Made by a program: the position numbers and the translations under genes
The notes under the pieces: model-generated
Told to the model about the DNA's origin: nothing
What the model saw: only the letters and a program-made list of their open reading frames with translations
The model's database searches: none
Part shown: positions 4,607 to 31,630 of the stretch, in pieces
Numbering within the stretch: the stretch's first letter is position 1
Layout of the letters: each line of letters opens with the position of its first letter
Source of the DNA: an uncultured Pirellulales bacterium
GTDB taxonomy: Bacteria; Planctomycetota; Phycisphaerae; Sedimentisphaerales; Anaerobacaceae
Direction of reading: 5' to 3'
Length of the DNA stretch: 64,000 nt
NCBI GenBank assembly: GCA_964431645.1
Contig: CAYSKP010000027.1
Span: forward strand, 3,385 to 67,384

Positions 4607-7600
4607 TTAAAAATCTCCTATAAGCCAACTTTCAGCAAACGCCAAAAGGTCATCATTAGAAACTGTGCCGTCTCTGTTAAAGTCGCTGCCTGAGCACCAG
4701 TCATTGGCAATATCGCAGTTTGATTGTCCCCAATCATTTGCAAATTCCGCAAAATCTGTAAATTTGAGAGAGCATGGTGAAAGGTATATCCCATCTATTA
4801 TCTGTCTATCCAGACCGGGTCCCTGCCAGGCTACTGATATATTATCGGTTTCGCTGCCTTCCTTATGGCTAACGAAAATGTAATATTTCTGCCCGGCAGT
4901 AAGATAAACGGGAGATGATTGCTGAGAAGAATATTTATCCCACTGATTCAAATCTGTGAAATCCGGCACGTAAGCCATCAAGGCTACATGAAAAAGTGAC
5001 GAATCCGTACTAAGATACAGTTCACAGGCGTTATCGCCGGAAATCCAGAAAACATAATTTCCGCTGGTGACCGGATTTAAATAGCCACGAATAAGTGCGG
5101 CGTAATTATCCATCCAGTTTACAGGGCCATCGAGTTTCGTAATTAAATGTCTGCCGGTTGGATTAAAAGGATAATTTTCACTATTATATAAAGCATCTAA
5201 TGTATCGCCGGGCAAATCAAGCCACCATTCTCTTAATATAGAACCTGTTCCGATTGCCGGATGTTGTGAGATTCCTGAAACTTCGACCGAATAGATGGAT
5301 TCAAGGCCGGCCGAATCAACAGCGGTAGCTACATAATAATAGGTTGTATCATCTGTGACATTGGTATCTAAATAATCGGAACTGCTTAATAATAATGTGT
5401 TTAATTTTACATAGTCAGAACCGGAAGTTAAGGAACGATATACATTATATCCATTAAAATCCGGCTCATCATTATTGTTCCAGTCAAGCACGATAGAACC
5501 TATAGCTCCGGAAGCTGTTAATCCCAAAGGAGCAGCGGGGGCAATATTTGGGGCAATTTTGAGGACAAAACCGATAAGGACGTGATTGCCCGATGATTGA
5601 GTTATCGATGGGGTTTCGCTAACGCCTGAAGCAGGTTTGTGTCCGCCCATACCATCATAACCTGTGACAGAAAGATCCGCATCTTTAGTCCAGCCAGTGG
5701 TTACGGAATATATTCCAACTACAGAGCTTGCGGCAGCTTCGATGACCATATCGCCGCTATTAGTTGAAAGGGCGGAAGTCGAGATTGTGGATACACCTGT
5801 GAGGCCATTGCTTGCAGAGGAACCTACCAGTGATGTCTGATTAACGTTTTGAAGGAGTACGCTGCTGTAAGTTATACTGCCGGGTGCCGAAGTCCAGGTT
5901 GGAGTAAAAGTTACATTAGATGCCGCCTCAATGTTGGCATCATTTAATATGAAAGCGGCAACATAAGCACGGCTGGAACTCGAACCAACGATTTTATCGA
6001 TAATCTTTGTCATCGAACGGCCGCCGTAGGTGACAGCAGTTAAGCTCGATGTGCCGCTGCTGCTTTTGGCATGAGCAACAAAGACCAATGCGCGATTGTA
6101 ACCTGATTCTTTTGCATGAGTTGTTCCTGTTGACCATGAACCGATTATTTCAACCCCTGGAACGAGCTGGGGCCTTGCAGCTACCTGGCCGGAATTAGCT
6201 GACTCATTTAAAGAAGTATCTTCCGCAGTGACTACATAATAGTAGATAGTCCCGTTAGTAACATTGGCGTCGTTAAAATCAGAGCTGATGATAAGAGATG
6301 TGTTTTGTTTTATATAAGGGCCGCCGGAAGTGAATGAACGGTATACATTAAAGCCGTTTATATCGGGTTCAGTGTTATTGTTCCAGTCGAGCGAAACAAT
6401 CAAATCGCCCCCGACTGCCGTTAATCCCGCAGGGGCAGATGGTGCTATAGAGTCGGCGGGAACCGTTGCGGAAACTTCGATTGAATCAGCAGATGAATTA
6501 AAGTTTGTATCAACAGCAGTGACAACATAATAATAGGTTCTTGTGCCTGCAACATTGGTATCTGTGTAGGAAGATACATTCGAGCGGACGAGATTAAGGC
6601 GTGCGGTTTGGCCGCCTGGAGTTGTTGAACGGTAAATATCATAGCCGTATAAATCACCTTCGGTATTATTATTCCAGTCAAGAGTGATTGTCCCTATTGC
6701 CGGAGTTGCAGTTAATTCAGTCGGTGCAGCCGGAGGAATTGTGTTTCCTTCACTGGGCTGATTGTCATTTCTTTTCAAATAAAGCGTATCTTTAACAAAG
6801 CCGCCCATTTGCTCTTTACCGACACGGAGGGTCCAATCGGTGTAAAACATCGGAGGACCCCAGTTATAGCTTGCGACCCAGGCGCTGTTGCTTATTTGAC
6901 GTGCCTCTCGGAAATCAGAGATAGGCTGGCCGTAATTTGTAATCGTTCCCTGAAGGCCGGAATCAGAATCCATGCTGAAACCCCATTCACTCATAAAAAC
7001 CGGATAACGCGTAAGGGCAGTATTAATCTGATTTTGATAAGCGGACAGATGACCGGAGTCGAGCCAGTGGCCCGGGTAAATATGTGAAACCATAACAATG
7101 TTATCACCTGTAAGGGGATAAGATGCCGAAGGGGTAATGACCTGGGAATAAAATGGACCCGCGACAAGGATGAGATTATTGGGTGCATAGGACCGGACGA
7201 TGTTAATCCATGTCTGCATATCAGCCCTGACACTGAGCCAGTCGGCAGTGTCATGGATGTTAAAAATCCAGTCACCATTAAGGTCATTAATCGGCTCATT
7301 GAAAAGCTCGAACATAACATGGCTGTCGTTGGCAAATCTCGGAGCCATATACGCCCAGAACTGGCTGGTAGATTCTACGTGATCATAAGTATTTGCAATA
7401 TAGTGCCAGTCTATAATGGCATAAAGATCTTTTGTTTTGCAATAATTTACAACAGTTCTAAGAAGGTTGTATAAATCTGTATTATTAGGATTAAAAGGAT
7501 GAGGCCATCCGCTTACTGAATCGGGAGGGGTAATATCAATTCTAATGACTCTGGGATACCAGCCGGGTGAATTGCCTTCAGTATTGGTTTTATTAGTAAG

Positions 7601-7861
7601 CCGGTCAATCATATTAATTGCGCCGCCCTGCCAATCCTGCAGGGAGCCGAGGTCAATCAAATCGACACCTCTCAATACGACAATATTATTGCAGGGGTCT
7701 TTGATTTTATTGCCATCTGTATGAAGCCAGGGCGTGGCGCAATAAAGCGGCGATGTAATGCATACAATCAAAATAATTGATATTTTTTTAAAAATGTTAT
7801 TTCCTCCATTTTCTTGACCTTCAAAATAAGGCCCGAATTTTTTATTAAAAAAAATATTCAT
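4607..7861 (-). CDS. Secreted multidomain glycoside hydrolase family 5: GH5, 2x FN3, unknown ~200-aa module, FN3, PA14-like domain, dockerin-like tail
   Basis: GH5 motifs: IIDWHY, the acid/base in ELFNEPIN, HIYPGHW, and the nucleophile in MSEWGF. FN3-like repeats: LDWNNN...YNVYRS...YYYVVTAVD. PA14-like segment: GNYVFWISGDNACELYLS...GQKYYIFVSHKEGSETD. C-terminal DFNRDGTVSNDDLLAFAESWL. The track start at 7876 is TTG, and I prefer the ATG at 7861 (MNIFF...). Confidence 0.8.
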   Translation of the reverse strand: MNIFFNKKFGPYFEGQENGGNNIFKKISIILIVCITSPLYCATPWLHTDGNKIKDPCNNIVVLRGVDLIDLGSLQDWQGGAINMIDRLTNKTNTEGNSPGWYPRVIRIDITPPDSVSGWPHPFNPNNTDLYNLLRTVVNYCKTKDLYAIIDWHYIANTYDHVESTSQFWAYMAPRFANDSHVMFELFNEPINDLNGDWIFNIHDTADWLSVRADMQTWINIVRSYAPNNLILVAGPFYSQVITPSASYPLTGDNIVMVSHIYPGHWLDSGHLSAYQNQINTALTRYPVFMSEWGFSMDSDSGLQGTITNYGQPISDFREARQISNSAWVASYNWGPPMFYTDWTLRVGKEQMGGFVKDTLYLKRNDNQPSEGNTIPPAAPTELTATPAIGTITLDWNNNTEGDLYGYDIYRSTTPGGQTARLNLVRSNVSSYTDTNVAGTRTYYYVVTAVDTNFNSSADSIEVSATVPADSIAPSAPAGLTAVGGDLIVSLDWNNNTEPDINGFNVYRSFTSGGPYIKQNTSLIISSDFNDANVTNGTIYYYVVTAEDTSLNESANSGQVAARPQLVPGVEIIGSWSTGTTHAKESGYNRALVFVAHAKSSSGTSSLTAVTYGGRSMTKIIDKIVGSSSSRAYVAAFILNDANIEAASNVTFTPTWTSAPGSITYSSVLLQNVNQTSLVGSSASNGLTGVSTISTSALSTNSGDMVIEAAASSVVGIYSVTTGWTKDADLSVTGYDGMGGHKPASGVSETPSITQSSGNHVLIGFVLKIAPNIAPAAPLGLTASGAIGSIVLDWNNNDEPDFNGYNVYRSLTSGSDYVKLNTLLLSSSDYLDTNVTDDTTYYYVATAVDSAGLESIYSVEVSGISQHPAIGTGSILREWWLDLPGDTLDALYNSENYPFNPTGRHLITKLDGPVNWMDNYAALIRGYLNPVTSGNYVFWISGDNACELYLSTDSSLFHVALMAYVPDFTDLNQWDKYSSQQSSPVYLTAGQKYYIFVSHKEGSETDNISVAWQGPGLDRQIIDGIYLSPCSLKFTDFAEFANDWGQSNCDIANDWCSGSDFNRDGTVSNDDLLAFAESWLIGDF

Positions 7862-7876
7862 TCTAATTGTTCTCAA

Positions 7877-10387
7877 TTATGTGCAGTCCGGATTTTCGGG
7901 GTCGTTGCAGCCAAGCCATTGTTTTGCTAAATCGGCGAAGTCAAAGAAATCAACTGCGCCATCTCTTGGGAGAAAATCTGCATTGCCGCAATAATTATTT
8001 GCTTCATTACACTGTTGATTAAGCCAGAAGTCAGCGAACGCGGCAACGTCCGTATAATCAACATAACAATCGCTGTCGAGGTCCGATGGGAGACCGTGAC
8101 CCGCTGCTATAAGCTCGGCACAGGTTGAATAAGCCGGTTCCATCGCTTTGAGCACAAAACCGATTATCACTTGCCTGTTGGCTCCTGAATGAGTTGCGCT
8201 TGGAGTTTCACTTGCGCCGGTGGCGGCTTTATGGCCGGTTACACCGGTAAGACCATAAGTGCCGACCGATTGGTCTGTGCCTTCAGTGAAACCGTTGTTG
8301 AGGATATATGACCCAAGATTGCCACAAGTTGCGGCGTCAATAACCATATCACCATTGGCTGTGGCAAGCGAGGAGGTTGATATTGGATTGCCGCTGGTCG
8401 CAATATTGCTTGCAGTTGCGCCTAACGTAGTAGTTTGGGAAACATTAGAAAGGAATACACTTGAGTATGCGGATACATCTGGTGAAATGCTCCATGTGGG
8501 GACAAAACTGCCGTTTGTCGCAGCATCAACACCGGCTTCATTTAGAGTAAATGCCGCGACATAAGCATAATAACCGCTGCTTGTTACCACTTGGTCGAGC
8601 ACTTTGGTCATGGGCCGGCCGCCATACGTCACGGCCGTTAAAGAAGTATTTGCTGTGTGCTCGGCATGAGCGATGAAGACAAGTGCGCGGCTCGAGCCTG
8701 ATTCTTTGACGTGAGTCGTGCCGGAAACCCATGAGTCAAGCAGTGTAATATTTGTAATTAAATGCGGTGTTGCAGAAACTTCATTTGAGGTATTCGATTC
8801 ATTCAATGATGTATCGACGGCTGTAACGATGTAATAATAAGTTGTTCCGTTAATTGCACTGTTATCTAAATAAGCAGAAGCAGTCAAAAGCGCGACGTTC
8901 AATTTGATGTAACCAGTGCCCGGAGACATCGAGCGATATACATTGTAACCAGACAAATCTAAGTCAGAGTTATCGTTCCAATTAAGCGAAACTGAACTTG
9001 TGCCCGCGGTTGCGGTCAGGCCTGTTGGGGCGGCAGGCGCAATTGTGTCTGTTGGCGTTGCGGAAACCTCGCTGGAATCAACGGATTCATTCGAATATGT
9101 GTCAACGGCAGTTACGATGTAGTAATAAGTCACTGAGCCGTCGACATCGTAATCAATATAATCTGATGAGGGTACAACAAAGCTGTTAAGTTTGCTGTAG
9201 CCGATGCCTGAAGTAATCGAACGATAAACATTGTATCCTGCCAAATCTGTTTCATTATTATCATTCCAATTGAGCGAAACAAAGGAATCTCCTGCCGACG
9301 CGGATAAACCTGTCGGAGCAGCGGGGGCATTTGTGTCGCCGCCACCGGGCTGGTTCGAATCTTTATATAAATACAATATATCCTTGGTGAAACCTCCCAT
9401 TTCACCTTCACCAATTCTCAATGTCCAATCTGACCAGAACATAGGCGGGCCCCAGTCATAACTTGCGACCCAGGCAGTGTGGCCGATGCCGTACTGTTCC
9501 CTGAAATTAGAAAGCGGCTGGCCGTATCCGGTAATTGTGCCGTTAAGCAGGTCCTGCGGATCGGGGCTGCCGGTTTGGCTGAAACCCCACTCTGTCATTA
9601 AAATCGGAAAAACTGCGGCGCATGTAGTAATATGATTTTGATACCAGGAGGGATTGCGCCAGTGGCCGGGATAGATGTGCGAGACAACTGCAATGTTAGT
9701 GCCGCTGGGTGGATTAGATGCAATTGGTCCGATTGTCTGGGACCAGCTCGGACCCGACATAAGGATGACAGTATTAGGTGCATAAGTGCGGACAATATTA
9801 ATCCATGTCTGCATGTCGGTTTTTACAGATGCCCAATTCGCAGCATCTGAACCGAATGTGTTATTAATAGGTTCATTAAAAAGCTCATACAACACGTGTT
9901 CATCATTGGCAAATCTTGGGGCCATATATGTCCAGAACTGACTTGTTGAGGCAACATGCTCATATGTATTGGCTATGTAATGCCAGTCAATAATCGCATA
10001 CATATCTTTTGTTTTACAATAATCTACAACTGTTCTGAGAAGATTGTACAAGTCATTGTTATCGGGGTTAAAAGGATGAGGCCAGCCGTCTACAGAATCC
10101 GGAGGTGTAACATTAATTCTAATTACTTTGGGATACCAGCCCGGGGAACCGCCCTGGGAATCGGTCTTATTTGTTAAGCGGTCAATCATTTCGATAGCAC
10201 CGCCCTGCCATTCTTTAAGAAAACCTAAATCAATTAATGCGATACCCCTTAAAACGACAATATTGCCGGCGGGATCCTTTATTTTATTGCCATCTACGTG
10301 CAGCCTCGGGGTAGCGGCAAAAAGAGACATTGAAAAGAAGACGAACGTAAAAAAAATAACAATGCACGGTAACCTTCTCTTATCCAT
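7877..10387 (-). CDS. Secreted multidomain glycoside hydrolase family 5, paralog of the downstream gene: GH5, 2x FN3, unknown module, dockerin-like tail
   Basis: The GH5 motifs match its neighbour (YELFNEPIN, MTEWGF). By-eye identity in the catalytic domain is roughly three quarters. A GGAGG RBS lies before the ATG at 10387. It has a signal peptide (FFTFVFFSMSLFAATP) and a C-terminal DLDSDCYVDYTDVAAFADFWL ... DFLPRDGAVDFFDFADLAKQWL. Confidence 0.8.
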   Translation of the reverse strand: MDKRRLPCIVIFFTFVFFSMSLFAATPRLHVDGNKIKDPAGNIVVLRGIALIDLGFLKEWQGGAIEMIDRLTNKTDSQGGSPGWYPKVIRINVTPPDSVDGWPHPFNPDNNDLYNLLRTVVDYCKTKDMYAIIDWHYIANTYEHVASTSQFWTYMAPRFANDEHVLYELFNEPINNTFGSDAANWASVKTDMQTWINIVRTYAPNTVILMSGPSWSQTIGPIASNPPSGTNIAVVSHIYPGHWRNPSWYQNHITTCAAVFPILMTEWGFSQTGSPDPQDLLNGTITGYGQPLSNFREQYGIGHTAWVASYDWGPPMFWSDWTLRIGEGEMGGFTKDILYLYKDSNQPGGGDTNAPAAPTGLSASAGDSFVSLNWNDNNETDLAGYNVYRSITSGIGYSKLNSFVVPSSDYIDYDVDGSVTYYYIVTAVDTYSNESVDSSEVSATPTDTIAPAAPTGLTATAGTSSVSLNWNDNSDLDLSGYNVYRSMSPGTGYIKLNVALLTASAYLDNSAINGTTYYYIVTAVDTSLNESNTSNEVSATPHLITNITLLDSWVSGTTHVKESGSSRALVFIAHAEHTANTSLTAVTYGGRPMTKVLDQVVTSSGYYAYVAAFTLNEAGVDAATNGSFVPTWSISPDVSAYSSVFLSNVSQTTTLGATASNIATSGNPISTSSLATANGDMVIDAATCGNLGSYILNNGFTEGTDQSVGTYGLTGVTGHKAATGASETPSATHSGANRQVIIGFVLKAMEPAYSTCAELIAAGHGLPSDLDSDCYVDYTDVAAFADFWLNQQCNEANNYCGNADFLPRDGAVDFFDFADLAKQWLGCNDPENPDCT

Positions 10388-11004: not shown

Positions 11005-11550
11005 ATGATTAGAAAAATTATTCTCATCTCTGCGATTTTGTTTGTTCTCATGTTTTCTCAAATTACAGGAGAATGTTCTGCGGCAACGTCAGATAACTTT
11101 GTACAGGCAAAACAGAATATTTTCTCCATTATAGACAAAGGTGATTATGCCAATGCAGAATTGGCAATAAATAAAATATGTAGTGATTTCTCTGAAGAGC
11201 AGGGTTTACCTGAGGCTCTTTACTGGCTGGGTGTGAGATATGAATGGTTAGGCAGACCTGAAGAAGCTAACCGCATCTACCAGCAAGTGATTTCAAGTTA
11301 TCCCGGTAATATATGGTCAAAGAAAGCCAAGCTTGGTAACGCAAGAAACAATGCGATATCACTCATTTTGCTGCAAAATTATAAAGACGCCAAACAAGCG
11401 ATCGATAATCTGATAAATGTTTATTCAGGAGACCCGAATTTAGCTGAGACGCTTTACTGGATAATGTATAGATTTGAATGGCAGAATAAAGACGAGGACG
11501 CAAAACGGATCTGCCACTTTCTGCTAATTTACTCACTGTCTCAGGGGTAA
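11005..11550 (+). CDS. Secreted TPR-like repeat protein, possibly truncated at the 3' end
   Basis: Strong RBS aagggagg 8 nt before the ATG at 11005. Signal peptide MIRKIILISAILFVLMFSQITGECSA. Two copies of a repeat module (EALYWLGVRYEWLGRPEEANRIYQQVISSYPGN and ETLYWIMYRFEWQNKDEDAKRICHFLL...); the second breaks off abnormally. Confidence 0.6.
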   Translation: MIRKIILISAILFVLMFSQITGECSAATSDNFVQAKQNIFSIIDKGDYANAELAINKICSDFSEEQGLPEALYWLGVRYEWLGRPEEANRIYQQVISSYPGNIWSKKAKLGNARNNAISLILLQNYKDAKQAIDNLINVYSGDPNLAETLYWIMYRFEWQNKDEDAKRICHFLLIYSLSQG

Positions 11551-11552
11551 CT

Positions 11553-12095
11553 GTGCTTCTCGCATGGATTGTCCGCCAGCAACTAAAAATCAAAGGCAAA
11601 TTTTTTTCTATTATTTCCGCTGTTCCGTTTCCGGTCCTTACTTTATTTGATTCCTATGTTATGCGGCTTATCAGCAAAAAAACCGAAAAAAGCTTTGGAT
11701 GTGGTGCGGGACGCGGAAGCGTGTTGGTCGATATTCATGGATTTCTATGGCCTTGTCATCGGTTCAGCAGCAGTTTGAGAGTCCACAAAAATCTGGTTCT
11801 TGGCAGTATCTGGGGAGGATTCAACAATCGTCTTCGGAAAGCATACCTTTCGCTGGATCGGCCTGACAGTTTTGGCGCACGTTGTATTCGTTGCAAGAAG
11901 AAACAATTCTGTTTCGGCAGTTGCATCGGTGCTAATTGGCAAGAAAATGCAAATCTTTTGCGGCCGTCGCGGGGACATTGCAAGGTAGTAAATATTTTAT
12001 ATGAAGTTTCATCAAGACATGTTAATTTTATTAGTAAAACGGACCCTGTTTTTTGGAATCAATATTTAAAGTGGAAGCAAATAAACCTGCAATAA
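11553..12095 (+). CDS. SPASM-domain-only fragment of a radical SAM maturase; the radical-SAM CX3CX2C core is absent, so this is a likely gene remnant
   Basis: Complete SPASM signature: CGAGRGSVLVDIHGFLWPC (C-x12-G-x4-C), CIRCKKKQFCFGSC (C-x2-C-x5-C-x3-C) and a distal GHC. No CX3CX2C lies upstream. The reading frame opens only at 11490. The first ATG is at 11661. Confidence 0.65.
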   Translation: MLLAWIVRQQLKIKGKFFSIISAVPFPVLTLFDSYVMRLISKKTEKSFGCGAGRGSVLVDIHGFLWPCHRFSSSLRVHKNLVLGSIWGGFNNRLRKAYLSLDRPDSFGARCIRCKKKQFCFGSCIGANWQENANLLRPSRGHCKVVNILYEVSSRHVNFISKTDPVFWNQYLKWKQINLQ

Positions 12096-12110
12096 AGGAA
12101 GGATTATATT

Positions 12111-12590
12111 ATGAAAACAAAACAATCGAATCGAAAATCCTTTTCATTTATTAAAATAAAAAGGCAAAATTCTAATGATGCAAAATCATCGCGCCGTGAG
12201 TTTCTTAAACAGACAGGATATAAATGTATCGGATTTGCCGGTATGGTGTTTGCTGCTAATCTGAGCAGGCAAGCCGATGCCTGTCTGGCGACAGGTTGTC
12301 ATGTATTTTTTTGTCCAACTAGCTTTACGTGCAGTCCCTCTCCCTCTTATCCCTGTGTTGACAATAGATGCGATGAAAAAAATACCTGCTCTGGAACAAC
12401 AGATCCATATTTCATTTGCTACAGAGGTTTAGGAGATGGGAACATATGCGGAACGGACAATGAATGTTTAACATTCTTTTATTGCAGAAAAGGTCATACT
12501 TGTACTGGGCATAATTGGTGTGAGAGAACCGCCTTTGATTGTCCTTCTTCGAGTAATGTTTGTACTCCTACTAGTGATACTGGATGGTAG
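12111..12590 (+). CDS. Tat-signal, cysteine-rich secreted protein of unknown family
   Basis: RBS aggaagg. Twin-arginine consensus SSRREFLKQ, an h-region and an ADA site. The mature part of ~100 aa has 15 Cys. I see no heme or ferredoxin motif. Confidence 0.65.
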   Translation: MKTKQSNRKSFSFIKIKRQNSNDAKSSRREFLKQTGYKCIGFAGMVFAANLSRQADACLATGCHVFFCPTSFTCSPSPSYPCVDNRCDEKNTCSGTTDPYFICYRGLGDGNICGTDNECLTFFYCRKGHTCTGHNWCERTAFDCPSSSNVCTPTSDTGW

Positions 12591-12630
12591 TATTCATGTA
12601 AAAATTAACCTTCAAATAAAGGAGTTTCTT

Positions 12631-13629
12631 ATGAAAGTGCAAAAAATATTTCAAATAGCCTGTTTAATGGTTTTTATGATTTTTTTGTGTCTTGCTGATG
12701 TTTTTGCGGCCACAAGAGCGGATGAATTATTTCAAAAAGCAATATCCGAAATGCATCAGGACAAGATGGATTCAAATTCTGTGAAATTACTACTGAACAC
12801 TATATTGGCCTGTGATGATGCCAATGATGTTTTGAGAATAAGAATTCACCAGCTTCGTGCCCGGTTTAATTTTTCAAACACGGAGTTAGCGAAAAGCGAT
12901 TGCAATTCAGCTATTCTGATAGCAAAAGGGCTAATTGACCAGCGTATTAGCGGAAATACGAATCTATCGCAGGATTATCTTATATGGATGTGTGATGAAT
13001 ATGGAGCGGCCGCATCGCTTGGAAGCAGTGTGCTTTCTCAAGCTGGTGAATTTAATGAAGCGGCAGATATGTTCCTGTCATATTCAGGAGATATTCTCAA
13101 GCTCGGGCCTTTTGTCGACGTAAATGGCCAGGAAAAAATTCTTGATTTCACAGTAAGAGGATGGTGCAGAGCTGCGAAAGTAATGAAAGATGCCAAAAAA
13201 CCTGCTGAAGCGCATAAGATATTTGAAAACGCAATAGAGGTATTAAATAGACTTGATTGTCTGACTCCCGAGATGCGCGAAAAAGATGTTTATACGATGC
13301 AATTAGGGGCGTTGATAACCAGCGATGTCAATGATGAGTCATTTGGTGCTGCTGTCGCCGAGATTATTGAGAAGAATAAAACAAAACCCTGGATTGTGGA
13401 TTCTTCAATTACCATTGCGAGTTTAACGAGCTTTGAAAAACGATTCATATTTTATACTAAATTAATAAATGCTCAGCCAACAAACGCTGACGCACATTCA
13501 ATGGCATCACTTTATGATTCGGCATCAAGAGCCGCAAAGTTAGCAGGCCATCCCGAAGAAGCAGTAATCTACTACAAAACTTTAAAGCAGAAATATCCCA
13601 ATGACCCACTATCTAATTTACCTAATTAG
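12631..13629 (+). CDS. Secreted helical-repeat (TPR-like) protein of unknown function
   Basis: RBS aaggag before the ATG at 12631. Signal peptide MKVQKIFQIACLMVFMIFLCLADVFA. The composition is helical. The track's 12520 start overlaps the upstream gene and is unlikely. Confidence 0.55.
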   Translation: MKVQKIFQIACLMVFMIFLCLADVFAATRADELFQKAISEMHQDKMDSNSVKLLLNTILACDDANDVLRIRIHQLRARFNFSNTELAKSDCNSAILIAKGLIDQRISGNTNLSQDYLIWMCDEYGAAASLGSSVLSQAGEFNEAADMFLSYSGDILKLGPFVDVNGQEKILDFTVRGWCRAAKVMKDAKKPAEAHKIFENAIEVLNRLDCLTPEMREKDVYTMQLGALITSDVNDESFGAAVAEIIEKNKTKPWIVDSSITIASLTSFEKRFIFYTKLINAQPTNADAHSMASLYDSASRAAKLAGHPEEAVIYYKTLKQKYPNDPLSNLPN

Positions 13630-20693: not shown

Positions 20694-20924
20694 ATGAGCA
20701 AAAAAAAGGCAATAAATTGCGTTGACCGCAGCAAAGCAAGATTAATCAAAGGCAAAGAACCTGTTAATGATTATGTGAACAGACCGGCAGAAGAATGTGT
20801 CGCTATGGTCTGGCAGCTTACAGAGGAATTATGGTCTATTAGCGGCCAAAAAAATGCTCAACAACGATTACAAAGAAATGCTGCAGTGCTTAAAAAGTTT
20901 AAGGCCGATAGACATCAGTTATAG
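20694..20924 (+). CDS. Small hypothetical protein (76 aa)
   Basis: ORF only. Its 3' end overlaps the convergent radical SAM gene by 26 nt. I recognise no motif. Confidence 0.3.
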   Translation: MSKKKAINCVDRSKARLIKGKEPVNDYVNRPAEECVAMVWQLTEELWSISGQKNAQQRLQRNAAVLKKFKADRHQL

Positions 20925-22698
20925 TAAAAGCATCTTCTAAATGTTTAAGCAGGTAATTTTTTTCAGGGCCGCCAAGGTGCTCCCAAGGCAGGATTTCATC
21001 TGTCGAGAATTGTTTTTGGGCGGCTTTATCGAGATTCATGCCAGATTTTTCAAATGCATCCTTCCAGATTTGCGGCTTAAAAGTCTCGCTCCATAAATCA
21101 AATTTTGCGCCGTTTCTCCATGCGTATTCGATAACGTCTGCCAATCGCCTGTCACCGCGGCTAATTGCTGATTCGAGAATCGACTGATGTATTTCGTGAA
21201 ATTTAAACTGGAGATATTTTGCATTAAGTCTTCTTTTTTCTGTGATAATTATATTTTTGGCATTCGCAAAATATTCATCAGGCTTTTGAGCAAGCCAGCC
21301 GAAAGGCGTATGCGGTTTGGGGACAAGCCAGCTTACCGCAACATTCACAGATGCGGTTCTGCCATCAAAATTTCTGTGGAGTTTGGCGAGCTTATCCGAC
21401 AAACGAACAATTTGCCTGATATCATCTTCGGTTTCGCCGGGCAATCCCGCCATGAAATACAGCTTTACTTTCTGCCAGCCGGCCTCAAATGCCGCTGAGG
21501 CGGCGGCGAAAAGGTCTTCATCCTTAAGAGGTTTATTTATGATTTGCCTCAACCGTTCAGATGCAGCTTCCACAGCGATGGTCAGGCCGGATTTTCTAAC
21601 TTCATTGACCAGCGTTGGAAGCAGCTTTAACTGCTGGTCAACCCGCAGGCTCGGCAAAGAAAGCCCTACATATTTATCAGCAAAAAAACTATGCAGAAGT
21701 TCAATGAGCTTTTCGATATCGGGGTAATCGGCTGTCGATAAACTTAACAGGCTTATAGTATCAAAACCGGTCGCCTGAAAGGCATTTTTTGCTATTTCAA
21801 AGATTTTATCAATGCTGCGATAACGTATCGGCCTTCGGCAGAAGCTTGCCTGGCAAAATCTGCATCGGCCGGGACAGCCCCGCATAATTTCGATACTGAC
21901 TCGCTCGTGAATTGCCTGTGCAAACGGAACAATCGGTTTGGCTGGAACGGGGGCATTATCGAGATTATCTATAGCTGCATTAATGAATCTGGTTGGAAGA
22001 TTTTCAATTGAGGTAAACGATTTTATTTTGTCATCTACATATTCAAATTTATAAAAGGAGGGGACATAAGCCCATTCAAATTTTCTTGCGGCGGCAAGGA
22101 GGATTTCTTTTTTTGAAAGACCATTTTTCTTTTCTTCAATTGTAAGATGGACTAAATCAGCAACAGCATTTTCCGCCTCACCTATTACAAACAGGTCAAT
22201 AAAAGGTACAATCGGCTCGCAGCAATTGGCCATGCCGCCGCCGGCGATAATGATGGGGTCATCTTCGCCTCGGCTACCACTGCGGATGTGTAAGCCGGCC
22301 AAATCAAGCATATTAAGGACGTTGGTATAACACAGCTCATTAGTCATGCTGAAACCGATTATATCGAAGGTGTTTACGGCCGCCCTGGATTCGAGGGAAA
22401 AAAGGGGAATATTTTTTTCACGCATGATTTGCTCGGCATCGAGCCAGGGGGCAAATACCCGTTCGGCGGCAACATTTTGAATTCTGTTCAAAACTTCATA
22501 AATGACCGCCATTCCCGTATAGCTCATGCCGACTTCATAGGTATCGGGAAAGCATAATGCCACAGATAAATCGCAATTGGCGAGGTCTTTTTTAATCTGG
22601 TTGATTTCGCCGCCGATGTACCTGGCGGGCCTGCGGACAAAAGGCAGGAAATCCTTATCAATTCTTTCGGTCAGTATTTTTGGTTCTTTTCTTTTCAC
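20899..22698 (-). CDS. B12-binding-domain radical SAM protein (TIGR03960-like)
   Basis: Radical SAM motif RGCPGRCRFCQA (CX3CX2C) after an N-terminal B12-binding-like Rossmann region. At ~600 aa it has the typical size for the family. Confidence 0.8.
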   Translation of the reverse strand: MKRKEPKILTERIDKDFLPFVRRPARYIGGEINQIKKDLANCDLSVALCFPDTYEVGMSYTGMAVIYEVLNRIQNVAAERVFAPWLDAEQIMREKNIPLFSLESRAAVNTFDIIGFSMTNELCYTNVLNMLDLAGLHIRSGSRGEDDPIIIAGGGMANCCEPIVPFIDLFVIGEAENAVADLVHLTIEEKKNGLSKKEILLAAARKFEWAYVPSFYKFEYVDDKIKSFTSIENLPTRFINAAIDNLDNAPVPAKPIVPFAQAIHERVSIEIMRGCPGRCRFCQASFCRRPIRYRSIDKIFEIAKNAFQATGFDTISLLSLSTADYPDIEKLIELLHSFFADKYVGLSLPSLRVDQQLKLLPTLVNEVRKSGLTIAVEAASERLRQIINKPLKDEDLFAAASAAFEAGWQKVKLYFMAGLPGETEDDIRQIVRLSDKLAKLHRNFDGRTASVNVAVSWLVPKPHTPFGWLAQKPDEYFANAKNIIITEKRRLNAKYLQFKFHEIHQSILESAISRGDRRLADVIEYAWRNGAKFDLWSETFKPQIWKDAFEKSGMNLDKAAQKQFSTDEILPWEHLGGPEKNYLLKHLEDAFTITDVYRP

Positions 22699-29656: not shown

Positions 29657-31630
29657 TTATGCGTCACTTGCGTGACTTATATAATGTCTTTTCATTACGC
29701 CGCGTCTTAAACCAAGGCCTATAGAGATTAGCAATACGACTGCGGGTGCGGCCAGCATATTGAATGCACGAAGTTTGTTGCCTAATGTCTCTATCTGCTG
29801 GCGTTTTTGCATTTTTACTTCGCGCAATTGCTGGCGGGCCTTTAACTTTTTAAGCTCGAGGTCTTTTGTCTTCTGTGCAAGGGTGCTGCCGATTACCTGT
29901 TTTTCCTTTTCATTTGCGGAAGTTACAAGTTTTTTCAATTCAGTTTCAAAGCCCATGATTTCGGCATTAATTTTGGCAACCTGGTCTGCGGTTTGGGCCT
30001 CGGCTTTTTCCTCAATCTGGTCAACAACAGTAAACGGCCTCTGGAAATTACCGCGGGACCTGATTGAGATAAGGTCGGTAGAGCCGGACAGGTCATCGAT
30101 GGTATTCATCAACAAAGCGCTATTGTCACCGACGACTATATTGCCGAAGAGCTGGTTTCTATAGTAAGCAAGAGAATTTGATAAAAAGTCAACATCCGCG
30201 TAAACGGCCACGGCACAATTTTCCTTTGCCTCAGTAATGCCTGTTACCTGTGTTTTTATTTTCGGGGCGTTTGGGTCATCCTCCGGCGGTTCAGACACAA
30301 GCACAATACCATCAGGGAAGGCACTTTTAAATTTACCAGTCAGCAGATAGCCCATAGTTACAGGTTTTGTGCCCTCTGAAAATTTCTTCATAAGAGATTG
30401 AGGGTCGAGCATCTGCAAATCGAACGGGCTATCGACTCTGAAGGAGTTGCCTTTTGCGGTAGTCATAAGAAGAGGAGTCCGCTCGATTTTATTTTCATTA
30501 TTGGAATCAGCAGGTAAAGGCAGTTCGTTAAGAATACCCGCAAACCATACGCGGACACTGTTGAGCTGAGCCGTAATTACGTTATTTCGGTTAAAGCTGG
30601 CAGGTGCCGCAAGATTAAGGAAGGCGATGATTTTTTCCATCGAGGGGCTGCCCGCCATCTGGGTGCCGGGGGCCAATTGTCTATCTCCTGCAAACGTAAG
30701 CTCAGGCATATCGAGTCCCCAGTTGTTTAGAAATCTTTTCAGGTTCGAACTTTGAGACACCTTTTCGGACTGCATCATCGCCATTTGACTTTGCTGCTGG
30801 TCAGCATAGCAATACGGGTCGATGCAGATGATAGTCCTGCCGCCTTTTAGTATAAACTGGTCTATCGCGAAAACAGTCTGAGCCGGGAAATCTTTGGGAT
30901 GAATTACAAGAAGGACATCGATATTGTTGATATCGTTTGTATCTGCCGGAATACTTTTTACATCATATTTTTGCTTGAGGTGCTCGATTATGGTCCACGC
31001 CATTTTGGGTTCCTGACCCTGCATAATCATCATTTGAGCCATATAATCGCTTGATTCGCCCATTACCGGAAGCGAGCTCAGGACGCCGATATTTTTTTTC
31101 TGGCGTGTCATCACCGTATCGATAAGAGAGCTTATATCATATTCGATGAAATTCTGGCGGTCGGGTGAAAAGAAGGGAATCGATTTTTCCGCACCGAACT
31201 GTGTCTGGACGACAAGTCCAAAGACGAAATTTTCTTCTTCAGTTATCGGGAATTTTTTCAGGCCGCTGCGCGTGGCTTCGAGCTCGTCATCCGAGAAAGG
31301 CCTTGGATCGATTATCTCAAGATTGACCATTCCTTTGGAGGCGGCTGCATATTCATCGAGCAGGGCCTTAATGAATTCATAGTAGTTATTAAAATATTTA
31401 ATCTGGTCGGGACCCTTCATGGAGGCAGTTTTAGCGTAATAAAGCTTGAGCTTAACAGGCTGATTCAGTTTGCCCAGAATCGATTTTGTTCCCGGGGATA
31501 ACGTATAAAGCTTCAGGCCAGTGACATCAATTTTAAGCCGCTTGCCTATATTCTGGCATATGCTTATGAAGCTAAACGTAATCAAGAAAACTAAAATGAC
31601 AGCCAATATTATTTTAATTGTTTTATTCAT
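29657..31630 (-). CDS. GldG-like ABC-transporter auxiliary component
   Basis: N- and C-terminal TM anchors around a large periplasmic domain, with a coiled-coil near the C-terminus. Its position after the ABC-2 permease is the typical GldA/F/G-like layout. Confidence 0.7.
   Translation of the reverse strand: MNKTIKIILAVILVFLITFSFISICQNIGKRLKIDVTGLKLYTLSPGTKSILGKLNQPVKLKLYYAKTASMKGPDQIKYFNNYYEFIKALLDEYAAASKGMVNLEIIDPRPFSDDELEATRSGLKKFPITEEENFVFGLVVQTQFGAEKSIPFFSPDRQNFIEYDISSLIDTVMTRQKKNIGVLSSLPVMGESSDYMAQMMIMQGQEPKMAWTIIEHLKQKYDVKSIPADTNDINNIDVLLVIHPKDFPAQTVFAIDQFILKGGRTIICIDPYCYADQQQSQMAMMQSEKVSQSSNLKRFLNNWGLDMPELTFAGDRQLAPGTQMAGSPSMEKIIAFLNLAAPASFNRNNVITAQLNSVRVWFAGILNELPLPADSNNENKIERTPLLMTTAKGNSFRVDSPFDLQMLDPQSLMKKFSEGTKPVTMGYLLTGKFKSAFPDGIVLVSEPPEDDPNAPKIKTQVTGITEAKENCAVAVYADVDFLSNSLAYYRNQLFGNIVVGDNSALLMNTIDDLSGSTDLISIRSRGNFQRPFTVVDQIEEKAEAQTADQVAKINAEIMGFETELKKLVTSANEKEKQVIGSTLAQKTKDLELKKLKARQQLREVKMQKRQQIETLGNKLRAFNMLAAPAVVLLISIGLGLRRGVMKRHYISHASDA

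Follow-up and report, generated by a model that had tools for sequence, protein, structure and literature searches.

To our knowledge, QhpC is the only protein-sized substrate of the radical S-adenosylmethionine (SAM) systems that form thioethers; their other substrates are short peptides. The locus studied here lies in a 64,000-nt stretch of contig CAYSKP010000027.1 from an uncultured Pirellulales bacterium, referred to as the window, where a Cys-rich protein with a twin-arginine (RR) signal (protein C) is encoded directly behind the remnant of a radical SAM/SPASM maturase gene. We read this locus, with a probability of roughly 0.6, as one copy, damaged not long ago, of a cassette that is conserved in Planctomycetota and in which a radical SAM enzyme staples the Cys-rich protein before its export by the twin-arginine translocation (Tat) pathway.

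Several described maturases resemble the enzyme of this cassette. In C-Xn-D motifs PapB connects the Cys to the Asp, and it tolerates n = 0–6 (PMC9413430). The PapA/PapB system (freyrasin) provides the best-scoring named family, and PapA shares with the Cys-rich proteins a repeated motif that pairs Cys with an acidic or amide residue. However, PapA is a short peptide with six motifs of the form Cys-x3-Asp, whereas the substrates proposed here have 100–400 residues, 15–62 Cys and an Asn or Asp (N/D) two residues before the Cys. The cassette also differs in having a Tat signal on the substrate, a separate partner with only a SPASM motif, and an enzyme that lacks an N-terminal recognition element (RRE) for RiPPs (peptides made by the ribosome and modified after translation) and scores below the 340 bits set for PapB.

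QhpD cross-links the ∼9-kDa QhpC in the cytoplasm ahead of export, joining Cys to Asp or Glu before the protein reaches the periplasm (PMC7876137). The likeness lies in the protein-sized substrate and in the rank of QhpD as second- or third-best family match. QhpC nevertheless receives three cross-links and a cysteine tryptophylquinone (CTQ) cofactor, has its leader cut by QhpE and leaves the cytoplasm through the ABC transporter QhpF instead of Tat, whereas no qhp genes (qhpA/B/E/F/G) were found in any locus examined here and the enzymes score far under the 453-bit cutoff for QhpD. In the streptococcal ranthipeptide NxxcA, the enzyme NxxcB joins Cys to the β-carbon of an upstream Asn (PMC9389541), so that Asn acts as a β-thioether acceptor much as may be the case here. 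NxxcA is, however, a short quorum-sensing-regulated Firmicutes peptide with a single NxxC at i-3 spacing (i-2 here) and without a Tat signal. CteB, the SCIFF maturase (5WGG; TIGR03974), is a thioether-forming radical SAM enzyme with two auxiliary SPASM clusters and represents the nearest solved structure, but the ∼90-residue RRE at its N-terminus is absent from these enzymes, and SCIFF is a six-Cys peptide of ∼45 aa.

A conserved Planctomycetota cassette and its rearranged copy

The region encodes four co-directional open reading frames (ORFs), at the positions given in the earlier note, made from the DNA alone, and all of them lie on the + strand:

11005..11550, +, ORF A: secreted tetratricopeptide repeat (TPR) protein, truncated at its 3' end
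11553..12095, +, ORF B: 180 aa as called, with a GTG start; antisense lead-in followed by the SPASM remnant
12111..12590, +, ORF C: Cys-rich protein of 159 aa with a Tat signal (protein C)
12631..13629, +, ORF D: secreted helical-repeat protein of ∼330 aa with a weak C-terminal TPR match

Protein C has only one close homolog among 5.8 billion clustered proteins, P0002 (68% identity), in which all 15 mature Cys are kept. Directly upstream of the P0002 gene, on a 2.4-kb contig (locus L001), lies the gene for an intact 410-aa radical SAM/SPASM enzyme with the motif CNLACSYC and a PF04055 match. Relatives of this enzyme were collected by protein search and by a scan with an enzyme alignment, which gave 16 loci in metagenome-assembled genomes of Planctomycetota (Phycisphaerae, Sedimentisphaerales, Pirellulales, Planctomycetaceae and Brocadiaceae); all enzyme relatives found belong to this phylum. 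The intact cassette has five genes, with the following lengths in loci L005, L007 and L009:

Gene 1: secreted TPR protein, 343–370 aa
Gene 2: partner without a Pfam match, 430–441 aa (390–480 aa overall)
Gene 3: radical SAM/SPASM enzyme, 409–411 aa
Gene 4: one or more Cys-rich proteins with a Tat signal, 166–179 aa (150–440 aa overall)
Gene 5: secreted helical protein, 330 aa

A Cys-rich ORF with an RR signal adjoins or lies near the enzyme gene in 18 of 20 distinct Planctomycetota loci; one of the two exceptions is at a contig edge and the other, L021, has none within 6 kb. The linkage could also be followed from the Cys-rich side for two distant proteins, with the enzyme directly upstream in L032 and the partner and enzyme 2–3 kb away in L036. 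The earlier note had set a comparison of gene neighbourhoods as a test, and in L001, in the 18 loci and in both reverse checks the homologs of protein C do adjoin or lie near full-length radical SAM/SPASM genes.

ORF A has TPR_6 and TPR_2 matches and a readable signal peptide, and it aligns to residues 1–172 of the 370-aa cassette TPR proteins (L005, L009). ORF D, which has a signal peptide and weak TPR matches only, is 58–61% identical to its positional counterparts in L007 and L009 and was also found in L001 and L005. The two had been described as secreted repeat proteins that bracket the Cys-rich gene; both do carry signal peptides, and they can now be described more precisely as conserved cassette members. 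A paralogous relationship between them was rejected on comparison. The identity of ORF A to the cassette TPR proteins is 35–37%, compared with 43–68% for the other cassette genes. It contains two 78-aa repeat units (a direct DNA repeat at 11184–11226 and 11418–11460, 72% identity, 234 nt apart), the second of which is interrupted by the rearrangement described below.

The intact enzymes retain the full CxxxCxxC radical SAM site. They score best against PapB (232–245 bits; NF047865 cutoff 340), followed by the QhpD and nif11-type maturases (173–222 bits), with 173–186 bits for QhpD itself (TIGR03906, cutoff 453) and 68–93 bits for the anaerobic sulfatase maturase (anSME) model (TIGR03942, cutoff 349). 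No sulfatase gene was seen in the loci examined. The match to the CteB structure 5WGG (E 9e-52) begins only at CteB residue 92, and the enzymes therefore lack the N-terminal RRE domain of CteB. Taken together, these matches place the enzyme in the thioether-forming PapB/QhpD/CteB clade.

The sole recognisable feature of the partner is a C-terminal SPASM-like Cys motif (27.6 and 32.8 bits, cutoff 27), and no relatives were found in the PDB. It was considered as a degenerate full-length paralog of the radical SAM enzyme, but when the profiles of the two were compared, the alignment covered the C-terminal Cys motif and nothing more, at 5% probability. Its N-terminal part gives the impression of being RRE-like, and it is tempting to speculate that the partner, and not the enzyme, supplies peptide recognition. 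Neither the partner nor the downstream protein nor the Cys-rich family matched a family model in the Pfam and NCBIfam searches.

As the earlier note had recognised, the ORF upstream of protein C carries a full SPASM signature without a radical SAM core. ORF B matches the TIGR04085 SPASM model with 36.1 bits (cutoff 27), the motifs C-x12-G-x4-C, C-x2-C-x5-C-x3-C and a distal C are readable in it, and in the alignment each of its seven SPASM Cys falls on a Cys that is invariant in the enzyme family. Neither a PF04055 match nor a CxxxCxxC motif was found in ORF B by Pfam and NCBIfam searches and alignment; the orthologous intact genes carry both CNLACSYC and PF04055. The best whole-family matches of the remnant are the C-termini of PapB, nif11-type and QhpD maturases (67 bits for PapB NF047865 and 44 for QhpD TIGR03906). 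An anSME relic, which the earlier note had named as an outcome that would overturn its view, was rejected at 18 bits (TIGR03942).

Comparison with L001 by blastn aligned window 11630–12712 to L001 1308–2416 with 82% nucleotide identity, the 3' end of the enzyme gene being L001 1308–1773, and window 11516–11626 to L001 1152–1042 in reverse orientation with 93.7% identity. By these alignments, ORF B is the 3' end of the maturase gene behind an inverted internal fragment:

11516..11626, −, inverted maturase-gene fragment: 111 nt, codons ∼168–204, ...PLIFSCWRTIHARSTVTPETVSKLAES (by blastn and protein alignment)
11630..12095, +, 3' remnant of the maturase gene: approximately residues 257–410, with the full SPASM domain and all seven auxiliary-cluster Cys

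Over its first ∼26 codons ORF B reads the inverted fragment in antisense, and enzyme homology starts at 11630 (blastn and protein alignment). ORF A is native up to ∼11515 (residue ∼170), while its last 11 codons and stop come from the same fragment. Enzyme codons 1–167, including the radical SAM cluster motif, and ∼205–255 are missing in the window, as are residues 173–370 of the TPR protein, and neither a partner-gene remnant nor a second copy of a cassette family was found in the 64 kb. Altogether ∼2.4 kb of the cassette is gone, with three breakpoints. The maturase is thus decayed, as had been suspected, but by a multi-breakpoint rearrangement with an inverted fragment and not by plain truncation. 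The rearranged sequence is 100% identical over both junctions in a 13-kb Joint Genome Institute (JGI) contig and in the Logan assembly of SRR5468422.

Since the rearrangement removed the partner gene and the radical SAM core, protein C can no longer be matured in cis; it is either an orphan or served in trans by a copy beyond the 64 kb. The ratio of nonsynonymous to synonymous substitution rates (dN/dS) of the SPASM remnant against L001 is 0.18 (0.12–0.23 for intact pairs) and the lineage-specific amino acid changes in it are balanced (7 in the window, 8 in L001), which argues that the break is recent relative to the divergence of the window and L001. A 20-nt imperfect inverted repeat (11495–11514 and 11619–11638, 75% complementary) flanks the inverted fragment and may reflect either rearrangement microhomology or chance; 23 such pairs occur in 1.3 kb.

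The Cys-rich proteins

Protein C is divided into two parts:

12111..12281, +, residues 1–57: leader and signal
residues 58–159: mature core with 15 Cys

Residues 27–33 (S-R-R-E-F-L-K) correspond to the twin-arginine consensus and are followed by a hydrophobic stretch and by A-D-A at residues 55–57. The first of the 15 mature Cys is residue 58 and the last residue 151, and the distance from one Cys to the next is 5–10. Cys makes up 14% of the mature part, and the units include six N-x-C, four F-x-C and one H-x-C. Signal, hydrophobic region, ADA site and Cys content are all as the earlier note had read them. Its view that the protein has no CxxCH or CxxCxxCxxxCP motif and no named family also held: reading of the motifs revealed neither of these nor any other cluster-binding spacing, and no family was found in the Pfam and NCBIfam searches. 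Protein C was also considered as a small subunit of a MauA/QhpC-like quinoprotein dehydrogenase, and this was rejected, with no dehydrogenase genes nearby and no conserved Trp.

A word-indexed protein search recovered only two, then six, relatives of protein C. The family was revealed by an exhaustive profile search with a hidden Markov model (HMM) against 1.84 billion representatives (E ≤ 1e-3), which gave 86 clusters, mostly of 140–260 aa. The motif RRx[FLIVM] is present near the N-terminus in 84 of the 86 members. Cys recurs about every six residues amid T/S/N-rich linkers, the Cys-to-Cys distance being 6 in 44%, 5 in 23% and 7 in 12% of cases. Two residues before the Cys (Cys-2), N or D is found at 88–92% of the 5- and 6-residue spacings and at 56–58% of the 7- and 8-residue spacings, against a background of 20.5% for N and D together. 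The N/D position is locked to the following Cys, and the repeat unit is therefore [N/D]-x-C with a variable linker. Phe and His come next at Cys-2, with ∼4% each of the 6-residue spacings.

Identity among the five closest members is 58–74% over the first 57 residues and 26–67% over the core (58–67% and 26–59%, respectively, without the closest pair), and dN/dS of the Cys-rich genes is 0.35–0.74. The features expected of a RiPP-type substrate are thereby found together: linkage to the enzyme (18/20), a conserved leader, a variable Cys core and a recurrent N/D at Cys-2. Of the members, 37 have an even and 48 an odd number of mature Cys, without the even-number bias expected of all-disulfide proteins. 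A match to a known disulfide-rich or metal-binding family had been named in the earlier note as an outcome that would count against its proposal, and no such match was obtained: Pfam and NCBIfam gave no family, and no YTV match, for any member tested, and a profile search of the PDB gave nothing significant (best E 0.13–0.4, including scytovirin at 0.13 and the Tenebrio thermal-hysteresis protein 1EZG at 0.3).

Two tandem Cys-rich genes follow the enzyme in L023 (from ∼7137 and ∼8805) and in L011 (6407–7528 and 8758–9846), in the latter with a D-like secreted protein between them. Long members of 316–439 aa with 42–62 Cys (L011:6407–7528, L015:3091–4410, L016:4970–6250, L017:7257–8207 and L018:4959–6125) have a hydrophobic tail, ...PPDLQNNIIGIIGGTILSTAFG, with no basic residues behind it, which may be a C-terminal membrane anchor or sorting signal. 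A sub-family that includes P0129, P0130 and P0138 has a conserved C-terminal D-x-D-C-G-[YWFM]-x-D-[IV]-S-C and often an N-terminal amphipathic LxxLxxELxxADxxEQ ahead of the RR motif; protein C has neither. In a variant sub-family (P0168 and P0197, the latter at L035:673–1416), Phe or Tyr replaces N/D at Cys-2, giving F-x-C units.

The family is probably under-annotated, and this may explain the scarce matches in the word-indexed search. In L009 the source gene caller overlooked the Cys-rich ORF at 7020–7553 and annotated a 66-aa ORF in a different frame instead, and the enzyme gene of the same locus is annotated from an internal start codon. RODEO curation begins from RRE-associated enzymes and drops precursors >600 bp (PMC10288494), criteria by which a large part of this family would be lost. 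Together with the ORF missed by the gene caller, this makes it likely that mining pipelines overlook the family. A scan of species-representative genomes with the Cys-rich alignment gave no matches, and a metagenome scan with the generic pattern SRREFLKQ had only two already known loci among the matches listed.

Proposed maturation and the alternatives

We propose that the enzyme, probably together with the partner, would recognise the conserved N-terminal region of the Cys-rich protein in the cytoplasm and, by 5'-deoxyadenosyl radical chemistry, bond the sulfur of each Cys to a carbon in a residue close by. The candidate acceptor is the near-invariant Asn/Asp two residues upstream of the Cys. 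The multiply stapled, compact protein would then be exported to the periplasm or cell envelope via Tat, a pathway that accepts folded cargo. Of the maturase gene, the rearrangement in the window has left the inverted 111-nt piece and the SPASM domain; the radical SAM core is gone, together with the partner gene as a whole and the TPR gene's 3' half. Of the Tat-routed radical SAM substrate system suggested in the earlier note, the gene pairing, the conservation of the signal and the decayed maturase were all observed, whereas we infer from them that the Cys-rich protein is the substrate, that thioethers are formed and that modification comes before export.

In its fullest form this would be a new class of protein-sized radical SAM-stapled products, in which dozens of [N/D]-x-C units become thioether rings, the twin-arginine region serves as recognition leader and a rigid, redox-insensitive product is exported folded into the periplasm or envelope; we put this tentatively, at somewhat under even odds. 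It would then be the first Tat-routed family of radical SAM-modified proteins and could represent a thioether stand-in for disulfide ladders in anoxic habitats. In the literature library searched, no paper was found that joins radical SAM with twin-arginine and thioether, cysteine-rich or SPASM. If the proposal is correct, these phylum-wide substrates of 150–440 residues, with their regular [N/D]-x-C code, Tat signal and separate SPASM-only partner, would carry RiPP-type chemistry over to entire secreted proteins, and cross-linking before export would be a testable reason for the use of Tat. There may also be a connection to the Cys-rich protein envelope that has long been noted in planctomycetes. 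The window copy is a natural maturase knockout and a possible point of comparison.

Several observations weigh against stapling before Tat export. In protein C only 6 of the 15 Cys have Asn at -2, and since Phe is found there four times and His once, Asn/Asp cannot be a universal acceptor. The F-x-C sub-family and the mixed units of protein C likewise argue against N/D as the sole acceptor, or for a structural role of that position in these proteins. The TIGR01409 Tat HMM gives protein C 14.3 bits, just under the cutoff of 16.7. AlphaFold predictions were uninformative, both for protein C (alignment of 30 sequences, pLDDT 50.6, from which no fold can be inferred) and for a more regular family member (23 sequences, pLDDT 45.0). 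Locus L021 has enzyme and partner genes but no Cys-rich gene within 6 kb. Every NCBIfam equivalog cutoff is missed by the intact enzymes, so that the system, although it would appear to work like a ranthipeptide or QhpCD system, is a member of no named equivalog and the reaction of the enzyme cannot be read from family membership. Regarding the window, the copies of the rearranged locus may all stem from one sampling project, and relaxed selection is not seen in the SPASM remnant, which may mean either that it was cut off very recently or that it still has a use.

Instead, the Cys-rich proteins might be ordinary secreted proteins with disulfide ladders, of the β-solenoid or wall type, and the radical SAM enzyme might modify something else or make a single modification that is not a cross-link. 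The N-x-C units with a Cys every ∼6 residues, set in T/S/N-rich linkers, also recall disulfide-laddered β-helices, and the weak matches to scytovirin and 1EZG point in the same direction. The latter, the antifreeze protein of Tenebrio molitor, is likewise built of a T/S/N-rich repeat with Cys at every sixth residue, but it is a eukaryotic, all-disulfide protein folded in the endoplasmic reticulum, and the match is non-significant and establishes no homology. Closer at hand are the YTV proteins, which are Cys-rich, exported, lineage-restricted envelope proteins of the same phylum (PMC8567305). They are, however, reported only in Planctomycetales and have no link to radical SAM genes, and the Cys-rich family has no YTV or other Pfam match. 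The window does contain a DsbD gene, 5 kb further downstream, but in other loci DsbD does not belong to the cassette. The RR signals in nearly all members point to folding before export, where disulfides normally do not form, and neither the Cys parity nor the tight linkage to a thioether-clade radical SAM enzyme over deep divergence is what ordinary disulfide proteins would lead one to expect. We therefore regard this explanation as unlikely, though it is the strongest competitor to stapling by the radical SAM enzyme.

The rearrangement could also be an assembly chimera in an organism that has an intact cassette. Short inverted segments at fold-back junctions can be assembly or library artefacts, and both the imperfect inverted repeat around the inverted piece and the absence of decay in the SPASM remnant would fit such an origin. 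As the junctions are identical in the JGI contig, the SRR5468422 assembly and the 70-kb contig behind the window, and as the loss of ∼2.4 kb with three breakpoints is unlike a single fold-back, we consider a chimera very improbable.

Least probable of all is that the Cys-rich protein is a metal or Fe-S binder, loaded in the cytoplasm and exported by Tat, with SPASM proteins that handle clusters and not cross-links: Tat typically carries cofactor-loaded proteins, the mature protein is rich in Cys and the cassette partner is SPASM-only with no radical SAM core, but no cluster-binding spacing is present, the conserved Asn/Asp at Cys-2 is not a known ligand pattern, the core is hypervariable except for Cys and N/D, and the intact enzyme keeps its CxxxCxxC site.

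Expression signals and surroundings

Ribosome-binding sites can be read upstream of ORF A (AGGGAGG), ORF C (AAGGAAGG) and ORF D (AAGGAG); the earlier note had claimed strong sites for all four genes, but before ORF B there is only AGGGG-n5-GTG. The note had also described the cluster as AT-richer than its flanks. The drop is present, with a GC content of 0.36–0.41 over ∼10.0–15.0 kb and 0.44–0.50 in the flanks, but it is not specific to the cluster and extends over the BamD and LptE genes. An Rfam scan of 9.5–15.5 kb matched no family, and scans for promoters and terminators gave matches at chance level only.

The flanks of the window encode BamD, LptE, FtsH, DsbD and two GH5 cellulases. The latter are two large neighbouring GH5 cellulase-family proteins of 1089 and 836 aa (4607–10387, −), one with a PA14 domain and the other with Ser/Thr-rich modules in repeat and Cys in its C-terminal segment. 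A second radical SAM gene at 20899–22698 (−) encodes 599 aa with Radical_SAM_N2 and Radical_SAM domains and no SPASM. This gene is not related to that of the cassette enzyme and could not stand in for it. Further downstream, at 29657–52697 (−), ∼20 co-directional genes form a long run, many of them encoding proteins of 250–380 aa.

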